From: Planctomycetota bacterium | GTDB lineage: Bacteria; Planctomycetota; UBA1135; GCA-002686595 | Direction: 5' to 3' | NCBI GenBank assembly: GCA_020638855.1 | Contig: JACKHT010000002.1 | Span: 430,154 to 494,153, forward strand | DNA length: 64,000 nt | Part shown: positions 6,637-63,290 of the stretch, in pieces | Position numbering within the stretch: the first letter of the stretch is position 1 | Layout: every line of letters starts with the position of its first letter | Notes under the pieces: generated by a model | Told to the model about the DNA's origin: nothing | Seen by the model: the letters and a program-made list of their open reading frames with translations, nothing else | Databases searched by the model: none | Made by a program: the position numbers and the translations under genes

Positions 6637-6885
6637 CATAGGACTCGAGTATTCGCGATCGAGTGCGAGATCACGCATGACAAGGCCGTCGGGCGGCAAG
6701 ACTCCGGATGACGATCCCGTTGGAAACCAGGCCTCCGGCTCCGGCCCCCCAAAGCGTCAACGACCAGGCCAGCAAGGGAACACCCGTTGGAAGCTTGAGC
6801 AGCCCCATCCGAGCCAGGAATTCCCCCGGTTTGGGGCCTGTCGCCTCCCTTTGAGGCAGGTGGTTGTTAACCTTGGGCACCGCCC

Positions 6886-7860: not shown

Positions 7861-9542
7861 GTGCGCAGCCCACCATGGAACCCGCCCCCGCGCGCGCGCT
7901 GAACATGGCCGATGCCCTGGCGCGGCGGTCCCGGAGCCACCCCGATCGCGACGCCATCCTCGCCAAGAAGGGCCGGGGCGAATGGACCCGTACAAGCTTC
8001 GGCGAACTGGAAGCGCGCGTGGCCGCGATCAGCGCCGGGCTCGCCGCTAGCGGAGTGACCCAGGGCATGCGCTGCGCCGTATTCGTGCGGCCTTCGGCAG
8101 ATTTGGTAGCCGTGGTCTATGCGCTCTTTCGCGTGGGGGCCATCCCGATCGTGGCCGACCCCGGCATGGGGCGCGAGCGCTTGCTCCAAGCCCTGGAGGA
8201 ATCCGAGCCCGAAGTCTTCATCGGAGTTCCCAAGGCCCACGCCGCGCGCAAGTTCTTCCCCAAGGCCTTCCAAAAGGTACGGCTCGCGATCACTTGCGGG
8301 CCGCGGCTGTTTTGGGGCGGCAAGACCCTGGCCCAAATCGAACGGCTTGGTCGCACGGCGCAACATCCGGTCGAGCCTTCCACCAGCGAGCACGACACAG
8401 CCGCGATCCTGTTCACCTCGGGCAGCACCGGTCCGCCCAAAGGCGTGGTCTACACCCACGGCATGTTCGCCGCCCAAGTCGAGGCCCTGCAAGCGCTCTA
8501 CCACTTCGAAGAAGGCGAAATCGACTTGGCCGGTTTGCCCCTGTTCGCCTTGTTCGACGTCGCCTTTGGCATGACCAGCGTGTTCCCCCCGCTGGACCCT
8601 AGCCGTCCGGGAGATTGCGACCCCAAAGCGATCTTTGAAACCCTGCGCGACCTGGGGGTGACGACGGCGTTTGGCTCCCCCGCCATTTGGCGGCGTGTGG
8701 TGCCGTGGTGCATCGATCAGGGCTACAGCCTGCCCCACATGCGCCGGGTTTTGTGCGCCGGAGCTCCGGTCCCCCCCGACTTGATTGCCGACTTCCACCG
8801 GGTCTTGCCGATCCACGCCGATGTGTTCACACCGTACGGGGCCACCGAAGCGTTGCCGGTGAGTTCGCTGGCAGGCCGTGACGTGGTTCCCAGCCTGCTG
8901 CCCCAAATCCAGGCGGGTGCGGGTACTTGCGTGGGCGCGCCGCGGCCGGGCATGCGGGTTGCGTTGATCCGGATCCAGGATGGCCCGATCGATGCCTGGG
9001 ACGAGTCCTTGTGCGTCGCCGAGGGCGAGATTGGCGAGGTCTGCGTGCAGGGCGACAGCGTGACCGAACAGTACGATCACCGCCCCGAAGCGACTCGCCT
9101 AGCCAAGATTCCCGACCCAGAAGGCGGTTTGTGGCATCGCATGGGCGATGCGGCCCGCTTCGATTCCGAAGGCCGCCTATGGTTCCAAGGACGCTTGGCG
9201 CACCGGGTGCAAACCACCGACGGGACGCGTTTCCCGGTGCCGGTGGAAAACATCTTCAACACCCATGAGCGGGTGCGCCGCACCGCCCTAGTGGGCGTGG
9301 GGCCGCCGGGAGCAGAGCGCCCGGTCGTCGTGGTCGAACCGCTCAAAGGCGAGATGCCAGGGGGCAAGGTGATGCGCGCAGGCTTCATCATGCAGCTCAA
9401 AACCATCGGCGCGCGTTGCCCGCTGACGGCTGACCTCGAAGAGTTCCTGTTCTACGAATCGTTCCCGGTGGACGTGCGGCACAACGCCAAGATCCACCGC
9501 GAAGAACTCAAAGTCTGGGCTGAGTCGCAGCTTCCCACCTGA
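7857..9542 (+). CDS. oleC: OleC-like AMP-dependent synthetase/ligase (beta-lactone synthetase)
   Basis: AMP-binding motif FTSGSTGPPKGVVYTH. 561 aa from the ATG at 7857, which overlaps the oleB stop (ATGA). The ORF-track extension back to 7761 lies inside oleB and was rejected. Confidence 0.75.
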   Translation: MSAQPTMEPAPARALNMADALARRSRSHPDRDAILAKKGRGEWTRTSFGELEARVAAISAGLAASGVTQGMRCAVFVRPSADLVAVVYALFRVGAIPIVADPGMGRERLLQALEESEPEVFIGVPKAHAARKFFPKAFQKVRLAITCGPRLFWGGKTLAQIERLGRTAQHPVEPSTSEHDTAAILFTSGSTGPPKGVVYTHGMFAAQVEALQALYHFEEGEIDLAGLPLFALFDVAFGMTSVFPPLDPSRPGDCDPKAIFETLRDLGVTTAFGSPAIWRRVVPWCIDQGYSLPHMRRVLCAGAPVPPDLIADFHRVLPIHADVFTPYGATEALPVSSLAGRDVVPSLLPQIQAGAGTCVGAPRPGMRVALIRIQDGPIDAWDESLCVAEGEIGEVCVQGDSVTEQYDHRPEATRLAKIPDPEGGLWHRMGDAARFDSEGRLWFQGRLAHRVQTTDGTRFPVPVENIFNTHERVRRTALVGVGPPGAERPVVVVEPLKGEMPGGKVMRAGFIMQLKTIGARCPLTADLEEFLFYESFPVDVRHNAKIHREELKVWAESQLPT

Positions 9543-15729: not shown

Positions 15730-18231
15730 CTAGCGACGTACGGTGAGGCGCAGGGACTCGCGCGCGCCGTCGAAACGGACCTCGCGCCGAATGTCTTTGT
15801 AGCCAGGTATGCGAACCAAGAGCCGCCAGCGGCCGCGCGGAATTCCCGCCGATTGGAACTCGGCGGTGCCCTTCGAAGCTCCGGTGGCTCGCAGGGCAAT
15901 CCGGCGTCCCTTCAACTCGGGTCGGTCGGCGGGGTCGGAAAGGTACTCGAGCCGGGCCAGGCTCCCCTTGGGCAACCCAGAATCGGGGATCCCCCGGACT
16001 TGCAGGGCAAACGTCGTCCCTGGCCAAACCCGGACGACTCCCAAGTCCATCTTGGCCCCGGGTGAGAGATCCACCGGCGGTAGATCCACGTACTCGAAGC
16101 CGGGTGTCCGGATGCGGGCGCGGAAACGGCCCGGTCGCAACCCCTGGATCTGGAAGCGCGTCCCCGAAGTGGTCAGGACCCCCCCTTGCAGCCCCTCAAA
16201 GCGCAGACGCGGCATCGGATCTTGGGTGTCGGCCAACAACACTTCCCCCTGAACCGATGCGGGGGCTCCGCGGAAGTCCGGCTCCATGGTCAAGATCAAG
16301 GGTTCGGGAAGCGGCAGCCCCATGGTCAGTTCCTTCGCTCCCGAGAGCTTCCAACCCGCCCGCTCCACGCGCATCACGACCTCGCCCGACTCGGGCCAAG
16401 CCGCACGCAGCGCGAACGAACCGGTGGGGTCGGAACGGTCGGTCGCGAGGTCGCGGGAAGACTCCCCGCGGACCCGTACCCTTGCCCCCCCCACGGCGTA
16501 GCCTTCCGGGTCAAGCACCCAACCGCGCACGACCCGCAAGCGCTCCAACTCGAAGTCCTTCTCGAGAACCAGCAAGTTGTCGGGATCCCCCGATCCAGCG
16601 CCTACGTCGGCATCCATCCGAAAGTTCCTCGCAGCGACGGCATCGCCGTCGCTTTCAAAACGCAGCACCAAGCCAGCATTCGGATACGTGGCAAATCCTT
16701 CGATCCGATAGCTCCCGTCGCTTTCCGTCCACCCCTCGCCCAGCACCTTGCCCCAATCCCCGCGCAGTTGCAGGTGCAAGCCCGCCCACGGCGTTTGGAA
16801 CGAATCGGTGATCGTGCCGAACAGCCTTCCTTGCCAGCCGCTGGTCAGGACCAAGTCCATGCGTGCTTCCCCCGCAGCCAACTGGACTCTCGTGCGCGGG
16901 CTCGCGGCGCTCCGCCCAGCTGCCTGGCCGTCCTTGGCTCCAGCAACCTGCACCCAGAGGTCAGCACCCGAGGGAAGCGAAGGGAATTCGAAGTGCCCCT
17001 TCCCGTCGGTTTCGGCGGTCCAAGTGGGATGGGCTCCACCCGATCGGCTCCCCCTGTTGCGCCGGGGGGGCGTCCATACGCATTCCACGACGCAACCCGC
17101 CACCGGTTTTCCGGTTGGATCCTGGACCACACCGCCCAGCCTTGCCGGCCGCGCAAGGTGCCAGACCCAGGGCGACTTGGCCTCCCAGTCCACGAGATCC
17201 AGGTACGGCTCTTCGATGGGAGCCCCGCCGGGGGGCAGCAAGCGCAGCCCCGTTCGCATCCCACGGGCCATGGGAATGGTGAATCGTCCGCTCGAGTCGC
17301 TGGTTGCCTGCGCCCCCGTGCCGACTTCCAGGTAGGTGGGCATGCCGAGGGCGTGGTAGGTGGCTTCGACGCGAACTCCCTCGACCGGGGTCTCGTCGTC
17401 TTGCCAAAGGACTCGGCCCTCCAACGGCGCAGTGGACTCACAGGTTTGCAAGGAAACTCGAACCTGCTCGCCAGCGGTCACGGCGATATCCTTGGCCACG
17501 GCATAAACCCCGGGCCCAAGCCGAATCGAGTAAACCCCCGCCTCGAGGCCGTCAAAGCGAAAGGCCCCTTGGGGGTCGAGGGGTACCTTCGCCAACTCGG
17601 AGAACGTGACGTTGGGTCCTGCCCCATACAGGAATGCTTGCACTTCCGGTGGCCCACCCGAGAACTCCCCTAGCAGGCTGGCCGCCTGTACCAGCAACAA
17701 AGTCAGCGCTTCCCCGCTGGTAGCGCGGGGCTTGGCGCGCGCGGTGTAGCCCGGCTTGGAAGCGATCAAGTCGCAGCCTTCCCCCAAAGGCACTTCCAAC
17801 ACAAAGCCACCTTGAGCGTCGCTTTGCGTTGCTACGCTGCCTTGCGCAAAACGGGCCTCGATACGAGCCCCTTCCAGGGGTTGCCCCGTGCGGCTGGCGA
17901 GCACGGTTCCATGCCAAGTTCCAAGGGTGGCTGCGCCCCAATCGACAGCGAGCGCTTGATCGACGGGGACGGGATCCGGGTCAGCGGCCGACGTGCGAGT
18001 GGAGGATTCCGGCGCTTGGCCGGCGAGTTGCGAGTCTCCGGCAGGGACCCCCGAGGATTCCTGCGACACGCTCTCGTTCTCCAATCCGGCGTGGGTGCCT
18101 GCTGCGCGCGGTCCGTCCAGCGCCCACCACACCAACCCGAACATCACGAAGAGTCCCAGCAGCACAAAGCCTACACTCCCCCGCACGGGGACCGAGCCCT
18201 TGGGATGCGGGTTGGAGCGAGCCATGACCAT
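15730..18231 (-). CDS. Membrane-anchored protein with multiple carboxypeptidase-regulatory-like (CarboxypepD_reg) beta-sandwich repeats, 833 aa
   Basis: The N-terminus MVMARSNPHPKG is followed by the TM segment VGFVLLGLFVMFGLVWWAL. Repeated motifs include GRVLWQDDETPVEGVRVEA, GVVQDPTGKPVAGCVVEC, GWVLDPEGYAVGGARVRVRG and GTVLASRTGQPLEGARIEA. The start ATG at 18229-18231 overlaps the upstream NHL gene stop (ATGA). The 228-codon Arg/Gly-rich extension up to 18915 was rejected. Confidence 0.6.
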   Translation of the reverse strand: MVMARSNPHPKGSVPVRGSVGFVLLGLFVMFGLVWWALDGPRAAGTHAGLENESVSQESSGVPAGDSQLAGQAPESSTRTSAADPDPVPVDQALAVDWGAATLGTWHGTVLASRTGQPLEGARIEARFAQGSVATQSDAQGGFVLEVPLGEGCDLIASKPGYTARAKPRATSGEALTLLLVQAASLLGEFSGGPPEVQAFLYGAGPNVTFSELAKVPLDPQGAFRFDGLEAGVYSIRLGPGVYAVAKDIAVTAGEQVRVSLQTCESTAPLEGRVLWQDDETPVEGVRVEATYHALGMPTYLEVGTGAQATSDSSGRFTIPMARGMRTGLRLLPPGGAPIEEPYLDLVDWEAKSPWVWHLARPARLGGVVQDPTGKPVAGCVVECVWTPPRRNRGSRSGGAHPTWTAETDGKGHFEFPSLPSGADLWVQVAGAKDGQAAGRSAASPRTRVQLAAGEARMDLVLTSGWQGRLFGTITDSFQTPWAGLHLQLRGDWGKVLGEGWTESDGSYRIEGFATYPNAGLVLRFESDGDAVAARNFRMDADVGAGSGDPDNLLVLEKDFELERLRVVRGWVLDPEGYAVGGARVRVRGESSRDLATDRSDPTGSFALRAAWPESGEVVMRVERAGWKLSGAKELTMGLPLPEPLILTMEPDFRGAPASVQGEVLLADTQDPMPRLRFEGLQGGVLTTSGTRFQIQGLRPGRFRARIRTPGFEYVDLPPVDLSPGAKMDLGVVRVWPGTTFALQVRGIPDSGLPKGSLARLEYLSDPADRPELKGRRIALRATGASKGTAEFQSAGIPRGRWRLLVRIPGYKDIRREVRFDGARESLRLTVRR

Positions 18232-19121
18232 CAGGAGACGAGCGCGGGGAACGCCCCGTAGCATACGCCCTGCAGGGTAAAGACTTGAACCCGATCCCCA
18301 AACGCATCCATGACAAAGACGCGCGCGGGCTGCAGGCCTTGGCTGGGGGCCAAGGCCAAGGCGCAGGGATCTTCCACTTGACCATCCTCGCGCCCCCCTT
18401 CCGCAATGCACGCGATGCGCCGGCCTTCGTCGTCGAACACCCACACGCTCGACCTTTCCCCGCCAAACCCCACGACCACATGACCATCGGGGGCCACCAC
18501 CATGCAACTGGGTCGAGCACCGGGTCCGGCTTCGTGCAGTGGAATGCTGAAGTGGTAGTCCCCGCCGCGGAAGACCTGAATCCGCGCAGCGGCGGCCTCC
18601 AACACCAAGAGTTCGCGGGTTCCCCGGGCAGCGATGGCGCAAACTTCCTCGAAGCGACCCTCGGGATCTCCCAACGGACGTAGCGACAGGTTGGTACCGC
18701 GAACCGTGTGCAAGACTTGCACCGCATGGCGCCGCCGTCCCCCGGAGGCCACCACCAACACCATGTCTTCGTCCTCGCCCAGGGCCAGGGTCGCCACCGG
18801 GTAGCCCAAGTCGCCGACTTGGTCGCGCCGTTCGGTTGCCGGCTCGAGGCAGACCACCTGGACACCAAACAACGTGTAACCGCGCACGCATCCGGCCGGC
18901 CCGTCGGCGATCCACAGGCGGTGGTCATGGTCGAGCGACAACCCGGTGGCGGCCGAGCGACCGGCCTTGGCATCCTGGAAGCGCACGATGGTCCGGATGG
19001 GGTGCCCATCCAAGTCGAATGCCGTGACGCTGGCGCTCTTGGCATGACGCCCCACGTAGAGCACTCCGCCCGCTTCGCACAATCCACCGTACATGGGACC
19101 ATCGTAGGACGCGGGTCGCAA
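18231..19121 (-). CDS. NHL-repeat / six-bladed beta-propeller protein, 296 aa
   Basis: Repeated blades of the form G.L..P.G.A.D..G..WV.D....R..VF (LWIADGPAGCVRGYTLFG, VFVMDAFGDRVQVFTLQG, VWVFDDEGRRIACI). Confidence 0.5.
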   Translation of the reverse strand: MRPASYDGPMYGGLCEAGGVLYVGRHAKSASVTAFDLDGHPIRTIVRFQDAKAGRSAATGLSLDHDHRLWIADGPAGCVRGYTLFGVQVVCLEPATERRDQVGDLGYPVATLALGEDEDMVLVVASGGRRRHAVQVLHTVRGTNLSLRPLGDPEGRFEEVCAIAARGTRELLVLEAAAARIQVFRGGDYHFSIPLHEAGPGARPSCMVVAPDGHVVVGFGGERSSVWVFDDEGRRIACIAEGGREDGQVEDPCALALAPSQGLQPARVFVMDAFGDRVQVFTLQGVCYGAFPALVS

Positions 19122-19173: not shown

Positions 19174-20076
19174 CTAAGTCGGACCTCGCGGGCGGCTCAT
19201 GCGACTGGTCGGTCGGGAATCGCTCGGGGATGCGGGAACCAACTCCAAGCACACGACTTCCGCCGGGACCCCCACGCGCACGGGAACCCCGACCACGCCT
19301 AGGCCTCGATTCACGTACAACGTGGTGGGTCCCAAGTTCACGCGCAGCCCCGGATGGCTGGGTCCCAGCGCTCGCAGCCCGGGCAAGTCGATTTGTCGAC
19401 CATGGGTATGACCCGCCAGGACCGCCACACACCCGGGTCGAACGAGGGCGGGTGCCCCGAGCGGATGATGGCACAACACCAATTCGAATTCGCCGGCTTC
19501 GAGTTCGGGGCGACACGGGGTAGCAGCCTCGGGCGGAGACTCCTCCAGATCGCTGATCCCGGTGACCCACAGCGGAAGCTCGCCCAACCGCACGCTCTTG
19601 TTTTCCAAACAGGTGATGTTCTGCTCGCGCAAAGCGGCGGCGATGCGCGCCTCTTGGTGCCCGCGGTAGTCGTGGTTGCCAAACACGGCGAAGCCACCTC
19701 GAGGCGGAACCAAGGCACCCAGATCGGGAGCGATCGCAAGCACGTCATCCCAGGCGTGGGTGATGTAGTCGCCGGTCAATACAAGCAAATCGGGCATCTG
19801 GCCTGCGATCCATTGCGCGATCGCCTTCAAGTCTCCCGCTCCCAAGAAGGGTCCCGCGTGCATGTCGGAGAGGTGCAAGATCCGAAAGCCGTGCAGCGCC
19901 CTGGGAAGGCCGGGGACGGGCAGACGCTCTTCGCGCAATTCCCAGCGGCCGGGCCCGAGGTAGCGGCTGCGGTACCAAGCCCTGCCACCCAACCAGCGCG
20001 CTGCATGTCGACACGAGGCAAACACCAAACGACGAACCAGCGAGTGTCGCCGGACGGGTTGCCGCAACGGGTCCAT
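19174..20076 (-). CDS. Calcineurin-like metallophosphoesterase, 300 aa
   Basis: GDYITHAWDD, GNHDY and GHTHGRQ metal-binding motifs. The start at ATG 20076 lies 4 nt after the anti-sigma gene stop. The longer ORF-track start 20235 would overlap the anti-sigma gene. Confidence 0.65.
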   Translation of the reverse strand: MDPLRQPVRRHSLVRRLVFASCRHAARWLGGRAWYRSRYLGPGRWELREERLPVPGLPRALHGFRILHLSDMHAGPFLGAGDLKAIAQWIAGQMPDLLVLTGDYITHAWDDVLAIAPDLGALVPPRGGFAVFGNHDYRGHQEARIAAALREQNITCLENKSVRLGELPLWVTGISDLEESPPEAATPCRPELEAGEFELVLCHHPLGAPALVRPGCVAVLAGHTHGRQIDLPGLRALGPSHPGLRVNLGPTTLYVNRGLGVVGVPVRVGVPAEVVCLELVPASPSDSRPTSRMSRPRGPT

Positions 20077-20080
20077 GGCC

Positions 20081-20863
20081 CTAGCGAGCGTCGGATGCAG
20101 CGAACGTTTGAGCCACACCTGCGACCAGCTGGGTCGAACCTTCGGCGTGCAACCACTCGGCTGTGCCGTCGAGAATCTCGACGGAGAGCCCGGCGGGGGT
20201 TTGCTGGAGGTTCGCCCGGCAGGCCGCTTTGGCAATCAGGACTCCTCCATCGCTGTAACAACGGAAGGGACCTTGCACCGCGACACGGCCTTGGAAGAGT
20301 CGCATGCTCACCGGGTGCATCGATTCCAGGCGCACTTCGGCGCCAGGATCCAAGTCCCACACGGTTTTGCCGCTCTGAACTTGCGCGTGCCCAGCGGGCC
20401 CCACGAACAAGCGCTCGCGCACGCGCATGCGAACCCCTTGGGCACCGGGGGCCAGCTCCTGGCCGCGCAGCCAAACGTCGGCGACCTGGGCTTGGACTTG
20501 AGCGCCACCGGGAGTCATCAGCTTGTGACTCAGGCCCCACATCAACAGGGCAAAGAAGGCGGGGTACACGAGGGTCCGCAGCCGACTGCGCATCCAGTTG
20601 CGCGAGGGCCCCGACTCGAAGACGTCTTGTCGAAGACTATGGCGTCGCAGGGCCTTTTCCTGGGCCAAGCGAGTGATCCGTTTTTCATGCCCGAGCCGGG
20701 CCAAAGTCCCGGCGACCCGTTCGAAGTGCTCGGCGCACCCGGGGCACCCCCCCAAATGCTCGCGCAAGGCGCCCCGCTCCTGGGGCGCCAAACTGGCGCT
20801 GGCGAAGCGCTGCACCAGGGCCTGGGCGGCCAGGCAATCGATTTCCGAAACGAGGGCAGACAT
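20081..20863 (-). CDS. Anti-sigma factor: N-terminal zf-HC2 zinc finger, one TM, periplasmic FecR-like domain
   Basis: REHLGGCPGCAEHFER forms a zf-HC2-type H..C..C motif. The TM segment is LVYPAFFALLMWGLS. The C-terminal domain carries FecR-like beta-strands (VRMRVRERLFVGPAGHAQVQSGKTVWDL). No sigma factor gene is adjacent. Confidence 0.6.
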   Translation of the reverse strand: MSALVSEIDCLAAQALVQRFASASLAPQERGALREHLGGCPGCAEHFERVAGTLARLGHEKRITRLAQEKALRRHSLRQDVFESGPSRNWMRSRLRTLVYPAFFALLMWGLSHKLMTPGGAQVQAQVADVWLRGQELAPGAQGVRMRVRERLFVGPAGHAQVQSGKTVWDLDPGAEVRLESMHPVSMRLFQGRVAVQGPFRCYSDGGVLIAKAACRANLQQTPAGLSVEILDGTAEWLHAEGSTQLVAGVAQTFAASDAR

Positions 20864-23755: not shown

Positions 23756-24778
23756 GTGAGGGCGGAATTCGATCGGACGCCGCTGGGCTTGGCCGGGCGG
23801 TTGGAAATGCGCCCCCTGGAAAGCAAGGTATTGGCAGGCAATCCGCTTGGGGATCCGAGTCTGCGCGAAGTCCCGGTCTACTTGCCCCCCCAAGCCAACG
23901 AGCGGCGCTTGCCCGTGGTGTGGCTGCTTTCGGCCTTCACGGGCACGCCCCAAGGCCTATTCGAATCCCATCCTTGGAAGCGCGGAGCCTTGTGGGAATG
24001 GGACCGAACCATGGCTTCGGGCGCGGCATCGCCAGCTATCGTGTGTATGCCCAACACCTTCACCCGGCTGGGCGGTAGCCAGTTCGTGAACTCCTCGGCC
24101 GTGGGCCGCTACCAGGACTATGTCCTCGACGAGTTGATCCCCTTTGTCGAAAGCCACTACCCCGTCCTCGAAGGCGCACGCGGAGTCGTGGGCAAGAGCT
24201 CGGGTGGTTTCGGGGCCCTGCACTTGTGCATGCAAAGACCGGGGACCTTCCAAGCAGCCGCTTCGATCGCGGGAGACTGTCACTTCGAAGCGAGCTTGGG
24301 GAACGACTTGCTCTGTGGCCTACGCGAAATCCAACGCTTGGGGGGCGATCCAAAGACGTTCTTGGAGGCGTTCTTCGTCAAGCCCAACCTCGAAGGCGAC
24401 GGACACGCCGCGCTCAACTTGTTGGCCATGGCGGCTTGCTACTCACCCAACCCCGAGTCTCCCTTGGGGTGGGACCTCCCCGTGGACTTGCACACGGGCG
24501 AGAGGATCGAAGCGGTGTGGGCGCGCTGGAAGGCATTCGATCCGATCGTCGCCTGCCGCCAACACTCCACCGGGCTGCGAGCGCTCCGCCTGCTCTACTT
24601 GGAGGCCGGCACGCGCGACGAATTCCACCTGCAGTTTGGCCTGCGGATCTTTTCGCGGACGCTGACCGAATTGGGGATTGCCCATCAGGTTCACGAATTC
24701 GAAGGGGGACACTTTGGCATGGACCGGCGCTATTCCGAAGTCCTCCCCCTACTCACCCAGGCCCTGGCAGCGATCTAG
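23756..24778 (+). CDS. Putative esterase (esterase D / enterochelin-esterase-like family)
   Basis: VGKSSGGFGALHLCMQRPGTF nucleophile region, compared with the GHSMGGHGAL of esterase D. A GTG start at 23756 follows a strong SD GGGAGG (23744-23749), 2 nt after the add stop. The alternative ATG at 23807 lacks an SD. Confidence 0.6.
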   Translation: MRAEFDRTPLGLAGRLEMRPLESKVLAGNPLGDPSLREVPVYLPPQANERRLPVVWLLSAFTGTPQGLFESHPWKRGALWEWDRTMASGAASPAIVCMPNTFTRLGGSQFVNSSAVGRYQDYVLDELIPFVESHYPVLEGARGVVGKSSGGFGALHLCMQRPGTFQAAASIAGDCHFEASLGNDLLCGLREIQRLGGDPKTFLEAFFVKPNLEGDGHAALNLLAMAACYSPNPESPLGWDLPVDLHTGERIEAVWARWKAFDPIVACRQHSTGLRALRLLYLEAGTRDEFHLQFGLRIFSRTLTELGIAHQVHEFEGGHFGMDRRYSEVLPLLTQALAAI

Positions 24779-24897
24779 GGCTTCCAGGAAAGGACCGGCC
24801 ACCGGGTTGGGGCCAGTCCGTGGATCGAAGCTGGATAGCCGAGGCTCCCCCGCAACTGGGTCCTGCCCCCGGCCCCTATCCGCCGTAGGATAGTGGT

Positions 24898-27393
24898 GTG
24901 ACCCTGCCCCCTTCCCCTGAAGACTCCGCGTGGCCCCAAGTGGGTGACTCGGTGGGACCCTGGCTCCTGATCCGGCCCTACCAGCTCGAGGGATCGGGGG
25001 AAATGTTCGTCGCCCGCCGCGCCGACGGCGCGTTCGATCGGGAAGTCTTGATCACCTTCCTGCGCCCCGATGCGGCCAACCCGTTTGCGCGCCAGGATTT
25101 TGAACGGGAAGTCGAACTCCAAGCCACCCTGGAGCATCCGGGGATCGCCAAGCTCTATGGTGCGGACACGACGGAGGGAGGCATCCCTTACATGGTCACG
25201 GAGTACCTTCCGGGCCAAGACATCGAGGTGTACCTGGACGCCAAGCGTGCCGGACTCCAAGAGCGCATCGAACTCTTCCTCGAACTCTGCCAAGCCGTGC
25301 AGCATGCTCACGAACAAGGCATTGTCGGACTCCACCTGCAAACCAACAACGTACACCTCTTGCCCGATGGAACCATTCGCACGGTGGTCTATGGCCTAGC
25401 ACACTCGAACCCATCCGCAGCGCGCGTCCTGGAACCCATTTGGCCGCAGTACGCCATCGAGTACGCCAGTCCCGAGGAATGGGCCGGTGCGCCGATCACG
25501 GGGGTGGCGGATGTGTACTCGTTGGGTGTGGTACTGCACGTGCTGCTCACGGGCGAGCTGGCCCACGACTTGCAGGGCTTGACTCCGGCCGAAGCGGCGG
25601 CGCAGGTGCATCAGGATTGGTTGGAGCCTGCGTCGGCACGGGTCCGACAGCGTGGGGATGCCACCCGTGCCCGTGCTCGAGGGTTGAACGTCAAACAATG
25701 GGCCCATGCCCTCGACGGCGACCTCGATCGCATCCTGGCCAAGGCCCTGGCGCAAGACTCCAGCCGGCGCTACCAAACGCCCCTCGCACTCGCCGAAGAC
25801 TTGGAGCGGCACCTCCAAGGCAAGCCGATCCGCGCGCGGGGACCCGCACCTTTCTACGCACTCCGAAGAGGGTTTGCGCGCCACCGCAGCGCGGTGCTTG
25901 CATCGGTCGCCGTGCTCGGGACCCTCGGTTGGGCGCTGAGTGCCAGCTATCGAAGCTCGGTCCGCGCCCAGATCGCCCTGGAGGATGCCAGGCGCGCCGA
26001 ATTGGAAGCGGACCACCAAAGCACCCGATTGCGCGAGTTGTGCATCCGCTTCCTGACCGAATTGGGTCCCACCATGCAAGGCCGCTCGGGGCTCGAAGAC
26101 GCCAGGCGCTATCTGTTGAACGTGGGGACCCCCCTGCTCGACCACCTCCAGGAAACCGGCTACGAAGATCCCCACCTGCGCGCGCAGATTGCCCAATCCT
26201 ATTCGCAGCTGGCCGAGGCAGATTGGATCGCCCAAGATGTGGGCAGCTTTGCCCGCACGCCCGACTCGGTTCGCCGGGCGCGGACCTTGACTCGCTCGGT
26301 CTTGCTATCGACCCAGGGACCGGCGACCGACCGCGGGATCATGTCTTGGGTTCGCTCGGTGCGCTGCGCGATTTGGTTTGCGGGTTTGATGCTCGACGAG
26401 CCCGCCGGCATGCAGGCCCTAGCGGAAAGCCAGCAGGAACTCGAGGAGGCGGGCTTGCGTGAATCCGACCTGCCCCCGCTCGCCATGGTGCATTGGCTGG
26501 AGGCGCGGCGGAGCCTGTTCGCCAGCCGCATGCACTACGACGAAGCCATCGACCTGTGGGATCTGCGGCGGATCCGTAGCTTGGCCGGCAGCGACCCGGC
26601 GATGGAGCCCTTCTTCAGGGGCGACTACCCGCGTTTTGAAGCGTATCGGGCCAACCTGTTGCTGCAATCTGGGCGCGAACGTGAGGCGCTCTTCGAACTT
26701 CCCACTTTGGTGTACCAGCTGCGCGAAGAGGCACGCTCCCATGACCCCCCGGTCGCAGACTTGGTGCAATTGGAAGCCAGCACGTGGCTGATGCTGGCCT
26801 TGGCTCGCACGCGGGTGGGACTTCCCCCCGGCGATGCTCTCTTGGAAGCCCGCTCGTCGCTGGAGCTCATCCAGAACTCGTTCACCGAACAACCGGGCTC
26901 GAGCCACGCCCTGGCCGGGGATTGGATTTGGTTGGCCGAGTGTACCTGGCGCATGGGCTCCGAGCACCGCGACGAAGCTCTAATAGCTTGCAATCGTGCC
27001 ATCGACGCCTGGCGAGAATTGCTGCGCAAAGGGGCGCGCTGGCCCGCATACCATGCCTACTTGGCCGAGGCGCTCGAGCTCAAGGGCCGCATCCTGGAAT
27101 CGGCCGATGACCGCACAGGAGCGGAAGCTTGCTGGATCGAGGCACAGAATGTGCTGGAAGGACTGCCGCTTCCCGCTGCGCAACACTCGCAGGTCCTGCT
27201 GCTCGGCAGCCGCGTCCGGATCGAACTGTGGCGCCTGCAAGGCGTGACCGACCCAAGCGCTTGGGCCAGCGTCGACCAAGTTCTCCAAACACTCCGCGAG
27301 CGCGGCGCTTGCGCGCAGCGAATCGAAGAAATCCAGACCTTAGGGAATCAAGCCTGGAAGCAGCGCCCAACCGAGACAGGAGCGGGTCGATGA
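24898..27393 (+). CDS. Predicted pseudokinase (degenerate Ser/Thr kinase domain) with TM segment and C-terminal helical/TPR-like repeat region, 831 aa
   Basis: The fold is a protein kinase but catalytic residues are replaced. The beta3 Lys is lost (EMFVARRADG versus VAIKV), HRDLKPSN becomes GLHLQTNN, and DFG becomes VYGLA, while the APE-like YASPEE is retained. The TM is AVLASVAVLGTLGWALSASY. GTG start at 24898. The stop overlaps the downstream kinase start. Confidence 0.6.
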   Translation: MTLPPSPEDSAWPQVGDSVGPWLLIRPYQLEGSGEMFVARRADGAFDREVLITFLRPDAANPFARQDFEREVELQATLEHPGIAKLYGADTTEGGIPYMVTEYLPGQDIEVYLDAKRAGLQERIELFLELCQAVQHAHEQGIVGLHLQTNNVHLLPDGTIRTVVYGLAHSNPSAARVLEPIWPQYAIEYASPEEWAGAPITGVADVYSLGVVLHVLLTGELAHDLQGLTPAEAAAQVHQDWLEPASARVRQRGDATRARARGLNVKQWAHALDGDLDRILAKALAQDSSRRYQTPLALAEDLERHLQGKPIRARGPAPFYALRRGFARHRSAVLASVAVLGTLGWALSASYRSSVRAQIALEDARRAELEADHQSTRLRELCIRFLTELGPTMQGRSGLEDARRYLLNVGTPLLDHLQETGYEDPHLRAQIAQSYSQLAEADWIAQDVGSFARTPDSVRRARTLTRSVLLSTQGPATDRGIMSWVRSVRCAIWFAGLMLDEPAGMQALAESQQELEEAGLRESDLPPLAMVHWLEARRSLFASRMHYDEAIDLWDLRRIRSLAGSDPAMEPFFRGDYPRFEAYRANLLLQSGREREALFELPTLVYQLREEARSHDPPVADLVQLEASTWLMLALARTRVGLPPGDALLEARSSLELIQNSFTEQPGSSHALAGDWIWLAECTWRMGSEHRDEALIACNRAIDAWRELLRKGARWPAYHAYLAEALELKGRILESADDRTGAEACWIEAQNVLEGLPLPAAQHSQVLLLGSRVRIELWRLQGVTDPSAWASVDQVLQTLRERGACAQRIEEIQTLGNQAWKQRPTETGAGR

Positions 27394-29867
27394 GTTCCAG
27401 CGATCCCCTGCTCGAAATCCTGGAGGCCGCCTTGCAGCTCGAGGGCGCCAAGCGAGAGGCCTACCTACAGGAGCGTTGTGGCCAAGATGCCGAGTTGTTG
27501 CGCCGCGTGCGCGACCTGTTGAGCGAGGACTCGCAGTCGGCAGAGTGGGATTTGCAGCGACCCCGTGACCTCTTGTCCCCGATCCTTTCGGTTCGCCAGT
27601 TTCCCCTCTTGGGCGCGAGGCTTGGACCCTGGAAGCTGGTGCGTGTCTTGGGCGAAGGGGGCATGGGAACGGTGTACCTGGGAGAGCGCATCGATGCAGC
27701 GTTCACCCAACAGGTGGCCATCAAGGTCATCCGCCAAGACGTGCGCCAAGGGCGCATGCTCGAACGCTTCGACCAGGAGCGTCACATCCATGCGGCCCTC
27801 GATCACCCATCGATTGCGGCGCTGCTGGATGCGGGGCGCACGCCCGATGGTCTGCCGTACCTCGTGATGGAATTCGTTCCTGGTGAACGGATCGACCACT
27901 ACTGTGAGCATCAAGACTTGGACGCCGTCGAACGGATCCGCCTGTTCCAGCAAGTGTGCCAAGTCGTCCAAGACGTGCACCAACTCGGGGTTTTGCACCG
28001 GGACCTCAAACCGAGCAACTTGGTGGTGCAGCCCAACGGCAAGGTCAAACTGTTGGATTTTGGAGTTGCACTTGTTTTGGGAGCCGGGGCCAACACAGAA
28101 AACGGTGAGTGGCCGTTTTTGACGCCCGCCTATGCCAGCCCGGAGTGCCTGCTGCGCAAGTCCATCACACGAGCCAGCGACCAGTATTCTCTAGGCATCA
28201 TCCTGCAGGAATTGCTCACCGATCGTCGCCCGCTGCTGGCGCGCTCCGGCGAAACTCCTGGAACCGACTCCACCAGCGGGTCCAGCCCTGGGTCGCCCCC
28301 CTCGCTGGGCCGACTACGCCGCGGGTCGCTCGCGATGTACCCCGACAATGGACGCTTCCTACGCGATCTGCGCGCGATTCTGTCGCGCAGTTTGGATCCA
28401 GATCCGCGCAATCGCTACGCGACCATCCGGGATTTGGAGCAGGACTTGGTGTGCCTCCTGGAAGGCGAAGCCGTCAAAGCCCGCCCGGTAGGTACCTGGG
28501 AAGGGCTGCGACGCAAGTGGTCGCTTTACCGACTGCCCATTGCGGGCGTGGGTCTGTTGTCCTTGCTCTTGGCGGGCAGTCTCGGGTACACCCAATACAA
28601 GGGCAAACAGTACCGCACGGCGCTCCAGCAGTCGAAGGTGGCCCGCGCCGACGCCGAGGAACATGCGCAGGTCATGGAGCGCTTTGCGCGCGAGATCCTG
28701 ACCGGACTGGAGCTGCGCTTGCGGCAAGTGCCCAATGCCTACGCGATCCGTGACATGTTGCTGTCGATCGGCACGCAATTTTTTGAGCGCGATCGCTATG
28801 CCAAGTCGATCCCGGAGGGGCTGCTGGTGACCGTTTTGGACGCCTATCGCAACCTAGCCCTGCTCCGGATGTACCCCATGGAGGGTGGAGGAACTCGCCT
28901 CCGTGACGCGATGGAGGCCTTTGGCAAGGCCTACGCGCTGATCCCAACCTTGGAGGCTGCCAATCCGCAACGTGGGCAACGCTACCGAGGCCTCCTGCTG
29001 CTCGACTGGGGCCTAGCGGAGACCGACAACCTCCATTTGGAGTCGGGGTTCCAGAAACTCCGGCAGGCTCAAGCGATTTTCGATGGCGCCGCCGATCGCA
29101 GCCAGCAACCCGCCCACCCGGAGGATGCGCTGCGCACCCTGCTGTCGATCGCCTCGAACCGCAACCAGGCTGGGGAGGCGAAAGCCGCGGTGGCGGCACT
29201 CGACCGCCTAGCCAAGGTCGAATCGCTGCTCAGTGCCGAGCGCCTGACCGACCCCTTCTTGGAAGGTACCTGCTTCATGGTCAACCTCAGCGCGGCCAAC
29301 CTATGGTGGGACTTGGGGCAAGAAGACCGCGCCCGCACGCTCTACACCGAGCTGCACCAAAAGAACTGGTCGCACCCCAGCGGCAATCCGAATCAGGACG
29401 TCATCAGCGCTTTGGGCTACATCAACCGGCTCAAACTCGACTGGCGCATGGATCCCAAGGCCCCCACCGAGTCCTTGCTGAACCGCTTGGATGGCGTCTT
29501 GCAAGGGCTTCTGCGAGCCGACGTGGAAGACACCCACTACGCGGAGGGGGTAGCCCAGCTGTACAGCTTGCGCGCGCGGATCTTGAACGGAGCGGGTGCT
29601 CCGAGGCAAGCTGCGGAAGCTTTGGAGGAAGCCTTCCGCTTCTGGCGCTTCTGCATCCGAGCCGATCCCGACAACGCCTCCGCCAAACGGGCGATGACGG
29701 AAGACTTGCTGCTCGGCGTGGACCTAGCCCGAAACGAAGGAGCCTCCCCCGCCCGCATCCAAGAACTACGCGAAGAGGCCCGGGCCTACCTGGAAGCCCT
29801 CAAGCACTTGGGAGTCGACCACCCCCTCGTCGCCCAACGAATCCGCGAACTCGACGCAGGGCGCTGA
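27390..29867 (+). CDS. Ser/Thr protein kinase (canonical) with conserved N-terminal leader, TM segment and C-terminal TPR-like repeats, 825 aa
   Basis: LGEGGMGTVYLG, VAIKVIRQD, HRDLKPSNLVV, LLDFGVA and AYASPECLL motifs. N-terminal DPLLEILEAALQLEGAKREAYLQERCGQDAELLRRVRDLL. TM LYRLPIAGVGLLSLLLAGSLGY. The ATG at 27390 overlaps the pseudokinase stop (ATGA). Confidence 0.85.
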   Translation: MSSSDPLLEILEAALQLEGAKREAYLQERCGQDAELLRRVRDLLSEDSQSAEWDLQRPRDLLSPILSVRQFPLLGARLGPWKLVRVLGEGGMGTVYLGERIDAAFTQQVAIKVIRQDVRQGRMLERFDQERHIHAALDHPSIAALLDAGRTPDGLPYLVMEFVPGERIDHYCEHQDLDAVERIRLFQQVCQVVQDVHQLGVLHRDLKPSNLVVQPNGKVKLLDFGVALVLGAGANTENGEWPFLTPAYASPECLLRKSITRASDQYSLGIILQELLTDRRPLLARSGETPGTDSTSGSSPGSPPSLGRLRRGSLAMYPDNGRFLRDLRAILSRSLDPDPRNRYATIRDLEQDLVCLLEGEAVKARPVGTWEGLRRKWSLYRLPIAGVGLLSLLLAGSLGYTQYKGKQYRTALQQSKVARADAEEHAQVMERFAREILTGLELRLRQVPNAYAIRDMLLSIGTQFFERDRYAKSIPEGLLVTVLDAYRNLALLRMYPMEGGGTRLRDAMEAFGKAYALIPTLEAANPQRGQRYRGLLLLDWGLAETDNLHLESGFQKLRQAQAIFDGAADRSQQPAHPEDALRTLLSIASNRNQAGEAKAAVAALDRLAKVESLLSAERLTDPFLEGTCFMVNLSAANLWWDLGQEDRARTLYTELHQKNWSHPSGNPNQDVISALGYINRLKLDWRMDPKAPTESLLNRLDGVLQGLLRADVEDTHYAEGVAQLYSLRARILNGAGAPRQAAEALEEAFRFWRFCIRADPDNASAKRAMTEDLLLGVDLARNEGASPARIQELREEARAYLEALKHLGVDHPLVAQRIRELDAGR

Positions 29868-29887
29868 GATTCGCCCCTGGCACGATC

Positions 29888-30460
29888 CTAAGCGCGCAAA
29901 CGATCGCGCAGCCAAATGCGCGCCACTTTCCAACGTCGCTCGACGGTGGCAGGAGAAAGCTCCAGGATGCGAGCGGTTTCTTCGATGGTCAGGCCCGCGA
30001 AGAAGCGCAGCTCTACCAAGCGGGCCAACTCCGCATCGGCCAACGCCAATTGGTCCAGAGCTTCGTGCAAGGCAATCACGTCGAGCGATTGCTCTTCGAA
30101 AGCCACCACGACTTGGTCGAGTGGCAAAGGACGCTCCGAACCGCCCCGCTTGACGGCGTTGCGCTTGCGAGCATGGTCCACCAAGACGTTGCGCATGGCC
30201 TTGGCTGCAACCCGGATGAAGTGCTGCCGGTCTTGCCAATGGGGCGTCTCATCGGTCCCCAACAGGCGCATGTAGGCCTCGTGGACCAGCGCGGTGGGTT
30301 GGAGCGTGTGGGATTCGCGCTCGCCCCGCATGCACGACGAAGCCACGCTACGCAGCTCCTGATAGACGTAGGGCAAGAGCGCCTCACCGGCCGACTCGTC
30401 CCCCGCACACAGCCGCGCGAGGAGCTGGGTGGCTTCGCTGGAACTAGGAGGGATGGGCAT
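29888..30460 (-). CDS. ECF-type sigma-70 family factor (regions 2 and 4), 190 aa
   Basis: Region 2 EALLPYVYQELRSVASSCMRGERESHTLQPTALVHEAYMRLL and region 4 HTH LVELRFFAGLTIEETARILELSPATVERRWKVARIWL. The start is at the internal ATG (MPIPPSSSEATQLL). The 127-codon upstream extension has no sigma-like sequence. Confidence 0.75.
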   Translation of the reverse strand: MPIPPSSSEATQLLARLCAGDESAGEALLPYVYQELRSVASSCMRGERESHTLQPTALVHEAYMRLLGTDETPHWQDRQHFIRVAAKAMRNVLVDHARKRNAVKRGGSERPLPLDQVVVAFEEQSLDVIALHEALDQLALADAELARLVELRFFAGLTIEETARILELSPATVERRWKVARIWLRDRLRA

Positions 30461-30620
30461 GGAAGGTGGCGAAGGGCTGGATCCCCAGTCTACCCCAAAC
30501 CACCTTGGCCCCGGGGCTACCAGCCCACCGGCCAGCATGGATTCCCCGTGAATGGGGCCGCCCTCCGGGTGTAGAGTAGGAGCCGTCCGGCACCCCCGGT
30601 GCCCCGAACGGAGAAACGCC
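30461..30620. promoter_or_regulatory. 160-bp divergent intergenic region shared by the ECF sigma gene and the nfeD-flotillin operon
   Basis: The only non-coding space between the divergently transcribed sigma (minus) and nfeD (plus) genes. A GGAGA SD lies 6 nt before the nfeD ATG. Promoter elements were not resolved by eye. Confidence 0.3.
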
Positions 30621-31172
30621 ATGGCTTGGATCCTTGAGAATTGGTCTTCCCAGACCCTGTTTGTGGGCTGCGCCATCGTGGGCGGGGCCATCCTGCTGCT
30701 CCAGCTCGTGTTGCTTCTATTCGGAGTCGACGGGGATGCAGACTTGGATGTGGACGGAGGCGACGGTTTTGGATTTGCCTCGATCCGGACCCTCTCCAGC
30801 TTGGTCGCCACCTTCGGACTGGTGGGCTGGTGGGCCCTCAACGAAGGCTACTCCCCGGCCGCGGCCACTGGCTTTGGCGCGGTGGCTGGGCTCCTGATGA
30901 TGTTCCTGGTCGCCTGGCTGTTCTCGCTGCAAAGCAAACTCTTCCAAGACGGCACAGTGGACAGCACCCGAGCGGTGGGCTTGGTGGCCACCGTCTACCT
31001 GCGCATCCCCGCCGCCGGAGAAGGCAAAGGCAAGATCACCGTAGCCCTGCAGGGCCGCACCCATGAGTTCGCCGCTTCGACCAAGGGCTCGGCCATCCCC
31101 ACCGGAGCCGAAGTCCGCGTGGTCGCACAAACTTCCCCCAACACTTTTGAAGTGGAGCCCCTATCCGAATGA
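30621..31172 (+). CDS. NfeD-like (YqiJ-type) membrane protein with C-terminal OB-fold
   Basis: Two N-terminal TM helices, an acidic loop DGDADLDVDGGDG and C-terminal beta-strands (KGKITVALQGRTHEFAAS...VRVV). The stop overlaps the flotillin start (ATGA), the canonical nfeD-floT arrangement. Confidence 0.65.
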   Translation: MAWILENWSSQTLFVGCAIVGGAILLLQLVLLLFGVDGDADLDVDGGDGFGFASIRTLSSLVATFGLVGWWALNEGYSPAAATGFGAVAGLLMMFLVAWLFSLQSKLFQDGTVDSTRAVGLVATVYLRIPAAGEGKGKITVALQGRTHEFAASTKGSAIPTGAEVRVVAQTSPNTFEVEPLSE

Positions 31173-32821
31173 CATCCAGCATGATGCCCCTCGCTTTCGC
31201 CAAGTCCGCGTTCCCCGAGAACGCCGTACCGGCCCTGATCGCCCTCTTGGTGATCGTTGTTTTGGCCGGTTTCTTCCTGATCATAGCCCGGCGCTACAAG
31301 CGCTGCCCCTCCAACAAGATCCTGGTGATCTACGGGCGCACCTCGCGGGGGCAAACCGCCAAAACGGTCCACGGGGGCGGTACCTTCGTGTGGCCCTTGC
31401 TCCAAAGCTACGACTACATCTCGCTCGAGCCCATGCAGATCGAGATCCCGTTGCAAGGGGCTCTTTCGCTCGAGAACATCCGCGTTTCGGTGCCCAGCGT
31501 GTTCACGGTCGCGGTGGGAACCGAAACCGAACAGATGAACAACGCCGCCGTGCGCCTCTTGTCGCTCACCCGCGGTGAGATCATGAAGCAAGCCGAAGAC
31601 ATCATCTTTGGCCAGCTCCGCCAGGTGATCGCCTCGATGAAAATCGAGGAGATCAACAAGGATCGCGACGTGTTCTTGACCAAGGTCCAATCGAGCTTGG
31701 AGCCCGAACTTTCGAAGATCGGCCTCGTGCTGATCAACGTCAACATCAAGGACCTCACCGACGAGTCGGGCTACATCGAAGCCATCGGCCGCAAGGCCGC
31801 TTCGGAGGCCATCAACCAGGCCGAAATCGACGTGGCCAAGCAGGAGCAGCTGGGCGCCATTGGGGTGGCCGCGGCGGACAAGGAGCGTTCGATCCAGGTG
31901 GCCGAACTAGAGAAGGTCCGCGACGTGGGGACCAAGTCCGCCGAGCGGGATCGAAGCGTGGAAATCGCCGAACTCGACCGCGACCGTATCATCGGGGAGA
32001 AACGCGCGGAGTTCACCCGGGAATCCGCCGTGCGCGACGCCCAGCGCGAAATGCGTATCCAAGTGGCCGACGCCGATGCCCACGCGGTGACCGGTGAGAA
32101 CGAGGCGCGCGCCTTGATCGCCAAGACCAACGCCGACCTGCAGGTGCAGGAAGCCAACGCCTACCAAATCGGGGAAACCCGCCAGCGCGAGGCCAAGGCG
32201 GCGGTGCTCGAAGCCGAGTACCTCGCCCAGGCCAAGGCCGCCGAGGCCCAAGGCAAGAAGATCGAAGCCGAAAAGCGCGCCGAGTTGGAGGCAACTGCGC
32301 GGGCCGTTAAGGCCCAAACCATCGTCGACGCCGAAGCCGCTGCCGAACGCGACCGCATCCGCGCCGAAGGCGAAGCCAAGGCCAACTTTGCGCGCCTCGA
32401 GGCCGAAGCCCGGGGCCAATACGAAATCTTGGCCAAGAAGGGTCAGGGTCTGCGCGAGATCATCGAAAGCTGCGGCGGTGCCGACCAAGCCTTCCGCATG
32501 CTGATGCTCGAGCACATCGACCACATCGCCGAAACCGCCGCCAACGCTATCTCCAACATCAAGTTCGACAAGATCGTGGTGTGGGATGGGGCCCAAGGCG
32601 GCGACGGAACCGGAGGAACGGGAACCAGCCGTTTCCTGCGCGGGCTGGCGGGTTCGTTGCCCCCGGCTTTGCAAATGATGCGTGATATCGGTGGAGTCGA
32701 AATGCCCGACTTCTTCGGCAAGTTGATCCTCGAAGACGACCAGCCCAAAGCGCCCGATGCGGACTCCGAGGCCCCGGATGGCGACGCCAAACCCGGCAAG
32801 ACTCCGCCTAAGGGCTCCTGA
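31169..32821 (+). CDS. Flotillin / SPFH (band 7) domain protein, YqiK-like, 550 aa
   Basis: N-terminal TM, an SPFH core (CPSNKILVIYGRTSRG...GGTFVWPLLQSYDYISLEPMQIEIP) and a long EA-rich coiled-coil flotillin tail. Confidence 0.8.
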   Translation: MTSSMMPLAFAKSAFPENAVPALIALLVIVVLAGFFLIIARRYKRCPSNKILVIYGRTSRGQTAKTVHGGGTFVWPLLQSYDYISLEPMQIEIPLQGALSLENIRVSVPSVFTVAVGTETEQMNNAAVRLLSLTRGEIMKQAEDIIFGQLRQVIASMKIEEINKDRDVFLTKVQSSLEPELSKIGLVLINVNIKDLTDESGYIEAIGRKAASEAINQAEIDVAKQEQLGAIGVAAADKERSIQVAELEKVRDVGTKSAERDRSVEIAELDRDRIIGEKRAEFTRESAVRDAQREMRIQVADADAHAVTGENEARALIAKTNADLQVQEANAYQIGETRQREAKAAVLEAEYLAQAKAAEAQGKKIEAEKRAELEATARAVKAQTIVDAEAAAERDRIRAEGEAKANFARLEAEARGQYEILAKKGQGLREIIESCGGADQAFRMLMLEHIDHIAETAANAISNIKFDKIVVWDGAQGGDGTGGTGTSRFLRGLAGSLPPALQMMRDIGGVEMPDFFGKLILEDDQPKAPDADSEAPDGDAKPGKTPPKGS

Positions 32822-63066: not shown

Positions 63067-63290
63067 AGCCTGACCCGCTGAGCGGAAATCGTTGGGAGAA
63101 GTGGTGTCGTGGAGATGGCCAACTGCCGGGCGAATCCTAGGCCTTCGGACGCGAATCGGTGCCCTCGGTAGCCTGGAGGCGCATGCGAAGCTCGCCCCGC
63201 CTTCTGAGCTGCGCCCGTGTTTTTCTGGGAGCCTCGGTTCCGCCCACTTCCAGGCTAGCATAGAATCGGGCCTCACGTCACTCGAGTCCA

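Follow-up and report, generated by a model that had tools for sequence, protein, structure and literature searches.

A predicted pseudokinase encoded beside a PknS-like kinase and a putative ECF43-like sigma factor in Planctomycetota

Introduction

The activation of ECF43 extracytoplasmic function (ECF) sigma factors by Ser/Thr phosphorylation is a recent discovery, and only two systems have been studied, PknS-EcfK and PknT-EcfP, each with one kinase. In ECF43 sigma factors, the acidic DxxDxxQE motif of region sigma2.2 is replaced by a QTTA-type motif, the Thr of which accepts the phosphate and is retained in 88% of members; the variants STTA and QATE occur in EcfP and EcfK, respectively (PMC13147305). 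PknS of Xanthomonas citri directly phosphorylates the ECF43 sigma factor EcfK; it has 833 aa and consists of an N-terminal extension of 83 aa, a kinase domain, a transmembrane (TM) helix and periplasmic tetratricopeptide repeats (TPRs) (PMC13147305). The present analysis concerns a related locus in a 64,000-nucleotide stretch of DNA (the window, to which all coordinates refer) from a Planctomycetota bacterium (assembly GCA_020638855.1, contig JACKHT010000002.1, positions 430,154 to 494,153 of the forward strand). In this locus, a predicted pseudokinase gene (PSK) lies directly upstream of the gene for a PknS/PknT-like active Ser/Thr kinase (KIN), and a gene for a putative ECF43-like sigma factor converges on KIN.

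Bacterial pseudokinases are numerous, and a role is known for almost none of them. Seven families "with unknown functions" (ActPs1-3, GLW, CP1, DYD and DLHK) are catalogued in a 2025 review, which connects none of them with the gene of a partner kinase, with a sigma factor or with Planctomycetota. An earlier reading of the window (the original prediction) had proposed that the two genes encode a pseudokinase and its catalytic paralog, expressed together.

Active site of PSK

The two genes and the motifs on which their classification depends are located as follows.

24898..27393, + strand: PSK (ORF1, first open reading frame), pseudokinase gene, 831 aa, GTG start (open reading frame list, sequence, Pkinase 59 bits)
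25045..25056, + strand: PSK beta3 motif VLIT in place of VAIK (Lys53 to Thr, Ala51 to Leu; alignments)
25327..25350, + strand: PSK catalytic loop, GLHLQTNN for HRDLKPSN (without the His, Arg, Asp and Lys but with Asn151)
25387..25395, + strand: PSK VYG in place of DFG (Asp164 to Val; alignments)
27390..29867, + strand: KIN (ORF2), active Ser/Thr kinase gene, PknS/PknT-like, 825 aa, ATG start (Pkinase 140 bits)
27624..28484, + strand: KIN kinase domain (VAIK 27714-27725, HRDLKPSN 27996-28019, DFG 28056-28064)

The two adjacent proteins of about 830 aa are thus encoded on the same strand, as originally described, and share the ATGA at 27390-27393. A longer form of PSK is ruled out by the in-frame TAG at 24886-24888, and its GTG is preceded by AGGA, 7 nt upstream. 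The catalytic columns were agreed upon by four alignments: BLASTP of PSK against KIN, phmmer to PknS and PknB, MAFFT with relatives, and a hidden Markov model (HMM) of five active relatives. A kinase homolog was regarded as a pseudokinase when at least one of the three catalytic residues was lost; PSK carries Thr53, His146 and Val164 in these columns. KIN retains all the catalytic motifs (GEGGMG, VAIK, HRDLKPSN, DFG and LTPAYASPE). The original prediction had recognized all three losses, and its reading of the catalytic loop was borne out by the four alignments. Two of its assignments need correction. The beta3 Lys is indeed lost, but the proposed Lys to Arg change in FVARR belongs to the preceding beta2 strand, the beta3 column reading VLIT; likewise, DFG is lost, but the proposed YGL is one residue out of register with the VYG of the column.

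The same columns read Thr, His or Asn, and Val in every PSK ortholog. Common to all the orthologs are the degraded motifs VLIT (in one case VLCT), G[LI][HN]LQxxN, with His, or Asn in some, at the HRD-Asp position, and V[YF]G; every KIN ortholog is canonical. When 8 PSK sequences were compared with 79 active relatives, further substitutions were found to be invariant in PSK at columns that are 82-100% conserved in the active kinases. These are Gly31 to Glu in the P-loop, where two glycines are lost, Val36 to Met and Ala51 to Leu in the adenine-sandwiching pair of the catalytic spine (C-spine), Met101 to Thr at the gatekeeper, Asp88 to Gly, and Thr186 to Ala in the activation loop. Retained are Glu71 of helix alphaC, Asn151, ASPE, Asp205 of helix alphaF and Arg291. 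ATP binding is made unlikely by the bulky Met36 and Leu51 at the adenine-contacting positions and by the lost P-loop Gly, and PSK is predicted to be a non-ATP-binding protein without phosphotransfer.

Distribution and genetic pairing with KIN

A search of 5.8 billion proteins yielded approximately ten PSK orthologs, full-length or fragmentary, with 44-53% identity, after which the score falls from 446 to 211 bits. Their hosts are all Planctomycetota metagenome-assembled genomes (MAGs) or unclassified "bacterium" MAGs. In a profile search of 1.84 billion cluster representatives, two full-length PSK representatives and four fragments were followed by ordinary kinases. Among 388 sequences (386 database proteins and the two window proteins), those without the catalytic triad are the PSK clade, a few fragments and one protein with AFG for DFG. 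PSK seems to represent a pseudokinase family that is narrowly distributed and has not been described before. The KIN orthologs, approximately eleven in number, share their contigs with the PSK orthologs, and the scores then drop from 598 to 302 bits, so that PSK and KIN co-occur 1:1 as far as genetic evidence goes.

A fragment of a PSK ortholog with 49% identity and the same dead motifs was also found in a contig binned as "Glaciecola sp.", a gammaproteobacterium (L008, JBLFXY010000250.1); this is probably a mis-binned Planctomycetota contig. As a separate case, a Myxococcaceae MAG (L030) encodes at 5200-7944 (- strand) a degenerate kinase homolog with HRA and PGG for HRD and DFG and a beta3 strand that is not alignable, adjoining and divergent from an active kinase at 7677-9101 (+ strand). 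It may be an independent pair of pseudokinase and kinase neighbours.

Loci were collected from GTDB species representatives (L003-L006) and from individual look-ups (L042-L044), giving eight lineages with the window, between which the PSK orthologs are 41-59% identical. Intact PSK orthologs of about 830 aa are present in at least eight Planctomycetota MAG lineages, and the tandem that the original prediction proposed looking for in other genomes is retained in them. The order PSK, KIN, convergent sigma gene was seen in every locus with enough contig. Two elements define the junction of the two genes.

27390..27393, + strand: ATGA stop/start overlap of PSK and KIN (sequence)
27378..27382, + strand: AGGAG, resembling a Shine-Dalgarno sequence, within the 3' end of PSK and 7 nt ahead of the KIN start

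The stop codon TGA of PSK begins within the start codon of KIN and ends at 27393. Of the eight lineages, four (window, L003, L004 and L005) have the ATGA overlap, three (L006, L042 and L043) a gap of 3 nt and one (L044) an overlap of 1 nt; the junction thus always lies between -4 and +3 nt, and purine-rich sites resembling AGGAG are also found at the orthologous junctions. Stop and start codons that overlap or abut, and do so in the orthologs as well, are the sequence pattern of a translationally coupled pair, and co-transcription and translational coupling of PSK and KIN are plausible. A promoter and terminator scan of 24500-31200 gave nothing exceeding shuffled expectation. The stoichiometric co-expression that had been read from the overlap does not follow, although the overlap itself is real: such overlaps are routine in this genome, and KIN has a ribosome-binding-like site of its own.

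Domain architecture and predicted folds

The remaining domains of the two proteins are as follows.

24940..25842, + strand: PSK pseudokinase domain, approximately residues 15-315, folded like a kinase but dead in its active site (AlphaFold2, PknS match)
25888..25950, + strand: PSK TM helix, residues 331-351 (hydropathy peak, Arg-rich N-flank; helix 330-348 in the model)
25963..27378, + strand: PSK extracytoplasmic all-alpha TPR-like solenoid of about 20 helices (AlphaFold2 predicted local distance difference test score (pLDDT) 89, predicted template modelling score (pTM) 0.87; Foldseek)
27390..27614, + strand: KIN N-terminal extension of about 75 aa (alignments; no counterpart in PSK)
28521..28589, + strand: KIN TM helix, residues 378-400 (hydropathy with Arg-rich flank)
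28596..29864, + strand: KIN extracytoplasmic helical domain, probably a distant homolog of its PSK counterpart (hhalign)

Both proteins match Pkinase (PF00069) above the cut-off of 31.7 bits, with 59 bits for PSK and 140 bits for KIN. As an Arg-rich stretch precedes the single hydrophobic helix, the kinase domains of both would be cytoplasmic and the C-terminal ~470 residues would lie outside. The full-length AlphaFold2 model of PSK, built with 89 sequences, has a mean pLDDT of 90, in agreement with the original prediction that YASPEE and the overall fold are kept. The modelled kinase domain is bilobal, with per-10-residue pLDDT mostly above 90 and a few other blocks lower; the weak parts of the model are the activation loop (pLDDT 69-77) and the linker after the TM helix. 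The closest solved structure to the model is PknS (PDB 9eed, TM-score 0.86), and the kinase domain of X. citri PknS in the same entry is also the top PDB sequence match for PSK (E 2.5e-30).

The ectodomain fold was modelled for PSK and carried over to KIN via hhalign. Foldseek matched the PSK ectodomain to the TPR superhelices of APC5, APPBP2, LGN and the peptide-sensing NprR/Rap proteins (E 1e-4 to 2e-3, TM-score 0.4-0.58). The Pfam TPR models found no family in PSK or KIN at E<=0.1, although many relatives have such matches. Profile-profile alignment of the two ectodomains by hhalign gave a probability of 77%, E 2e-5 and 19% identity over 382 columns, and the cytoplasmic parts are 29% identical by BLASTP; the ectodomains are probably homologous and far more diverged than the cytoplasmic parts. 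The shared architecture of a kinase domain, one TM helix and a helical, TPR-like region, as first described, is supported throughout. PSK has no equivalent of the ~75-residue N-terminal extension of KIN, its start aligning in every ortholog with the WPxVG/FPLLG segment before the kinase domain, and a Pfam search of this extension gave no family. KIN has the build of PknS and PknT, namely an N-terminal extension, an active kinase domain, one TM helix and a periplasmic TPR-type domain. PSK, which has neither the extension nor the catalytic residues, is a relative of this group and not a member of it.

The window encodes a third Ser/Thr kinase of 1081 aa at 60067-63312 (- strand), with Pfam-detectable TPR repeats and a canonical site except for DWG in place of DFG.

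The sigma factor

The gene facing KIN and its motif of interest are as follows.

29888..30460, - strand: ECF sigma factor, ECF43-like, 190 aa, its gene convergent with KIN and 20 nt away from it (PF07638, TIGR02999)
30290..30301, - strand: sigma2.2 motif QPTA (Thr56) in place of the acidic DxxD, candidate phospho-acceptor

The sigma factor scores 195 bits with PF07638 and 208 bits with TIGR02999 (cut-off 126), a family that we take to correspond to ECF43, and is 72-85% identical across lineages. The sigma2.2 register was fixed by the downstream LV[QH]E; both HTLQPTALVHEAY and QPTALVHE are unchanged in all five aligned sigma orthologs. When the sigma factor was compared with PDB sequences, nothing but designed repeat proteins and a capsid came up, which did not aid the sigma2.2 mapping. 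With QPTA in place of the acidic DxxD, the sigma factor is most likely ECF43-like and intrinsically inactive. Its neighbourhood is that of an ECF43 gene in having a Hanks-type kinase gene close by, KIN ending 20 nt from the sigma stop codon. Among the neighbours scanned, no anti-sigma factor adjoins the sigma gene, the nearest zf-HC2 protein being ~9 kb away. This is a 260-aa protein (20081-20863, - strand) with an N-terminal zf-HC2 motif of the anti-sigma-factor type, which is conserved in L003 and L004.

Among the other loci collected, the usual layout of sigma factor and kinase was found to comprise one active kinase and no dead partner, which marks PSK as an addition specific to its clade. 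In loci L010, L012, L015, L018, L020, L023 and L026, from Acidobacteriota, Gammaproteobacteria and other MAGs, a TIGR02999-like sigma gene immediately precedes a lone kinase gene and runs in the same direction. The sigma genes of the single-kinase loci are 43-49% identical to that of the window, and the kinase is canonical in all of them except L011 (Planctomycetaceae MAG), which has HGD for HRD in the catalytic loop.

Selection on PSK and its possible role

Nei-Gojobori estimates of the ratio of nonsynonymous to synonymous substitution rates (dN/dS) were obtained from three closely related loci.

PSK, whole gene: 0.23-0.39
PSK, pseudokinase domain: 0.10-0.15
PSK, ectodomain: 0.27-0.43, the fastest-evolving part of PSK
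KIN, whole gene: 0.12-0.16
Sigma factor: 0.05-0.21

In dN, the pseudokinase domain (0.051) is on a par with the live KIN domain (0.058). Together with the intact orthologs, these values strongly support the view that PSK is an intact pseudokinase under selection. Because selection on its kinase-like domain is as strong as on the live kinase, a role of this domain in protein contacts is suggested, and the diverged, fast-evolving ectodomain points to a distinct or modulating sensory input. L006 and L043 come from MAGs that are very close to each other. Between them, dS is 0.27 and dN 0.116 in the PSK ectodomain (from codon 356 to the end), against a dS of ~0.02-0.09 in the kinase domain of PSK, in KIN and in the sigma factor, which suggests recombination or rapid diversification confined to the PSK sensor domain.

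On a slight balance of probability, PSK is a non-catalytic co-receptor or regulatory subunit of KIN in a three-part module that controls sigma phosphorylation. KIN would sense a periplasmic cue through its TPR-like domain and phosphorylate Thr56 of the sigma factor, providing the negative charge needed for RNA polymerase binding, on the model of EcfP and EcfK. PSK, which would be made from the same mRNA just ahead of KIN, would associate with KIN in the inner membrane and serve it as a co-receptor or regulatory subunit without catalysis, the PSK ectodomain adding to or modifying signal recognition and its conserved pseudokinase domain setting KIN activity via contact between the kinase domains. 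The binding of PSK to KIN, its geometry, the direction of the effect (activation or restraint) and KIN's phosphorylation of this sigma factor are all inferred here. Without the N-terminal extension, PSK may, speculatively, not engage the partner of that extension, possibly the sigma factor.

Several observations weigh against this proposal. First, the Asp of the PknB-type dimer interface (family consensus D, 99%) is Gly in all PSKs, so that the canonical back-to-back N-lobe dimer is not assured. PknB L33 corresponds to Phe46 of PSK and PknB D76 to Gly88; Phe46 is invariant across the aligned relatives, Gly88 is invariant in PSK, and the residue at R10 is not conserved in the family. Second, ATGA overlaps are common in the host genome, and the same overlap joins two genes at 31169-31172. 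Third, the whole neighbourhood is syntenic in these MAGs (GltX, adenosine deaminase, esterase, NfeD-like protein, flotillin and QueF), and gene order alone is for this reason weak evidence of functional linkage; the matched clade sizes, tight junctions and selection data carry more weight. Fourth, in a bootstrapped neighbour-joining tree of 82 kinase domains, PSK and KIN were sisters in only 23% of bootstraps, and the mean kinase-domain distance between PSK and KIN (1.48) is larger than that between PSK and other family members (1.33).

The same tree bears on the origin of the pair. PSK and KIN are each monophyletic at 100% bootstrap, and they belong to the same family with a shared architecture, so that the term "paralog pair" holds in this broad sense. 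A recent tandem duplication is not supported, given the 23% sisterhood and the 19% identity of the ectodomains; the branches are long, and such a duplication may still have taken place. The juxtamembrane similarity that had been taken as a sign of paralogy is part of the family consensus (89 relatives) and is not specific to the pair.

Among other roles, PSK may be a decoy or competing receptor that binds the periplasmic cue or partner of KIN, or a related one, without output, damping or gating the pathway without touching the KIN kinase domain. It would fit the topology shared with KIN, the homologous but very diverged ectodomain (19% identity) as the fastest-evolving part (dN/dS 0.27-0.43) and the missing N-terminal extension. 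A pure decoy, however, would have no need of a kinase-like domain under constraint as tight as that on a live one (dN 0.051 against 0.058; dN/dS 0.10-0.15), and this role is unlikely. Somewhat less likely again is that PSK serves as a substrate and scaffold, phosphorylated by KIN and then recruiting other proteins. The cytoplasmic domain is conserved, as a scaffold would require, and there is a bacterial precedent in the MviN pseudokinase of M. tuberculosis, which is phosphorylated by PknB and recruits FhaA (PMC12599244). However, no gene for an FHA-domain protein or PP2C was found among the neighbours scanned, the activation-loop Thr of PSK is lost, and no phosphosite can be inferred from its sequence.

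It is very improbable that PSK keeps an atypical enzymatic activity, either phosphotransfer through a relocated residue as in WNK or another chemistry as in SelO and SidJ. Glu71 of alphaC, Asn151 of the catalytic loop, ASPE and the alphaF Asp are retained, and the gatekeeper (Thr) is small, but no compensating Lys or Asp is conserved, the HRD-Asp position varies between His and Asn, the adenine pocket holds the bulky Met36 and Leu51, and the P-loop Gly is Glu. A decaying, functionless duplicate kept by linkage only, to which the higher overall dN/dS of PSK (0.23-0.39 against 0.12-0.16 for KIN) might point, is effectively excluded, since the 2.5-kb reading frame is intact in at least eight lineages although GltX has diverged to ~74% identity, the dead motifs are invariant and dN/dS is far below 1; the concern that the upstream gene might be a pseudogene is thereby removed.

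Neighbouring genes

Beyond the sigma gene, and divergent from it, lie a gene for a 206-aa membrane protein (30552-31172, + strand), which has no Pfam match and is NfeD-like by position, and a gene for an SPFH/Band 7 flotillin-like protein (31169-32821, + strand), the two joined by a 4-nt ATGA-type overlap. This pair is kept in all the orthologous loci. On the other side, upstream of a metallophosphoesterase (19174-20235), is encoded a protein of 1064 aa (15730-18924, - strand) that combines repeated CarboxypepD_reg domains with a PEGA domain and is partly conserved in L003 and L004.

Comparison with known systems

Of the catalogued bacterial pseudokinases, the GLW family (Kannan/Eyers classification, PMC12599244) is superficially closest to PSK, with all three catalytic motifs degraded, Gly-Leu where HRD would begin and a TM helix that follows the domain. 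It is set apart from PSK by its family description, since the third residue in PSK is His or Asn (GLH/GLN/GIN) and not Trp and the beta3 motif is VLIT and not LLLL/W; moreover, GLW hosts are Proteobacteria, whereas those of PSK are Planctomycetota, and the nearest sequence relatives of PSK are all active PknS-like kinases. Membership of PSK in the GLW family was considered and rejected because the motif test failed and the nearest relatives beyond the PSK clade include no pseudokinase. The MviN/PknB/FhaA system of M. tuberculosis (ActPs3) resembles PSK in being membrane-anchored, in having bulky residues that fill the ATP pocket and in working with an active Hanks kinase. Unlike PSK, the MviN domain is fused to a flippase, has activation-loop deletions, is not encoded beside its kinase and has no sigma link. 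EssB/YukC of type VIIb secretion is likewise a single-pass membrane pseudokinase with all motifs degraded, and its role is scaffolding; unlike PSK, it occurs in Firmicutes with no partner kinase and has an unrelated extracellular domain.

In eukaryotes, HER3-EGFR/HER2, STRAD-LKB1, KSR-RAF and JAK JH2-JH1 are comparable in that a dead relative with a conserved fold is expressed with a live kinase, and in that an allosteric or co-receptor role is proposed; this comparison draws partly on the introduction of PMC12599244 and partly on established knowledge. The origin is independent, the output here is a sigma factor and not a kinase cascade, and the physical interaction of PSK with KIN is a prediction. 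If the pairing is real, bacteria came independently to use dead kinases as allosteric partners or co-receptors, and ECF signalling has an extra regulatory layer. Full-text searches of the literature collection available found no paper linking a pseudokinase to an ECF module. Tentatively, and with somewhat more doubt than belief, PSK-KIN may be proposed as the first bacterial obligate receptor pseudokinase-kinase heteromer, gating ECF43 sigma phosphorylation allosterically via a fast-evolving TPR sensor, as a counterpart of HER3-EGFR and STRAD-LKB1 wired to transcription, with PSK as a new family (VLIT / GL[HN]LQxxN / V[YF]G) outside the seven catalogued. The genome offers an explicit hypothesis with a defined pseudokinase, a partner kinase and a substrate with a predictable phospho-site (Thr56), and because all three are defined, the role of a bacterial pseudokinase becomes directly testable.

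The closest described systems remain PknS-EcfK of X. citri and PknT-EcfP of Vibrio parahaemolyticus. KIN has the build of PknS at a similar length (825 against 833 aa), PknS is the best PDB match, and the sigma factor of the window is likewise a TIGR02999/PF07638 protein with Q-x-T-A for the acidic DxxD in sigma2.2. The differences are that PknS has periplasmic TPRs whereas the ectodomains of PSK and KIN are undetected by Pfam TPR models, that the sigma gene of the window is convergent whereas Acidobacteriota-type loci are co-directional, and that the two described systems have one kinase whereas the window has a dead relative directly upstream, overlapping the kinase gene. The locus is best regarded as a known system, the ECF43-kinase module, with an added dead subunit.

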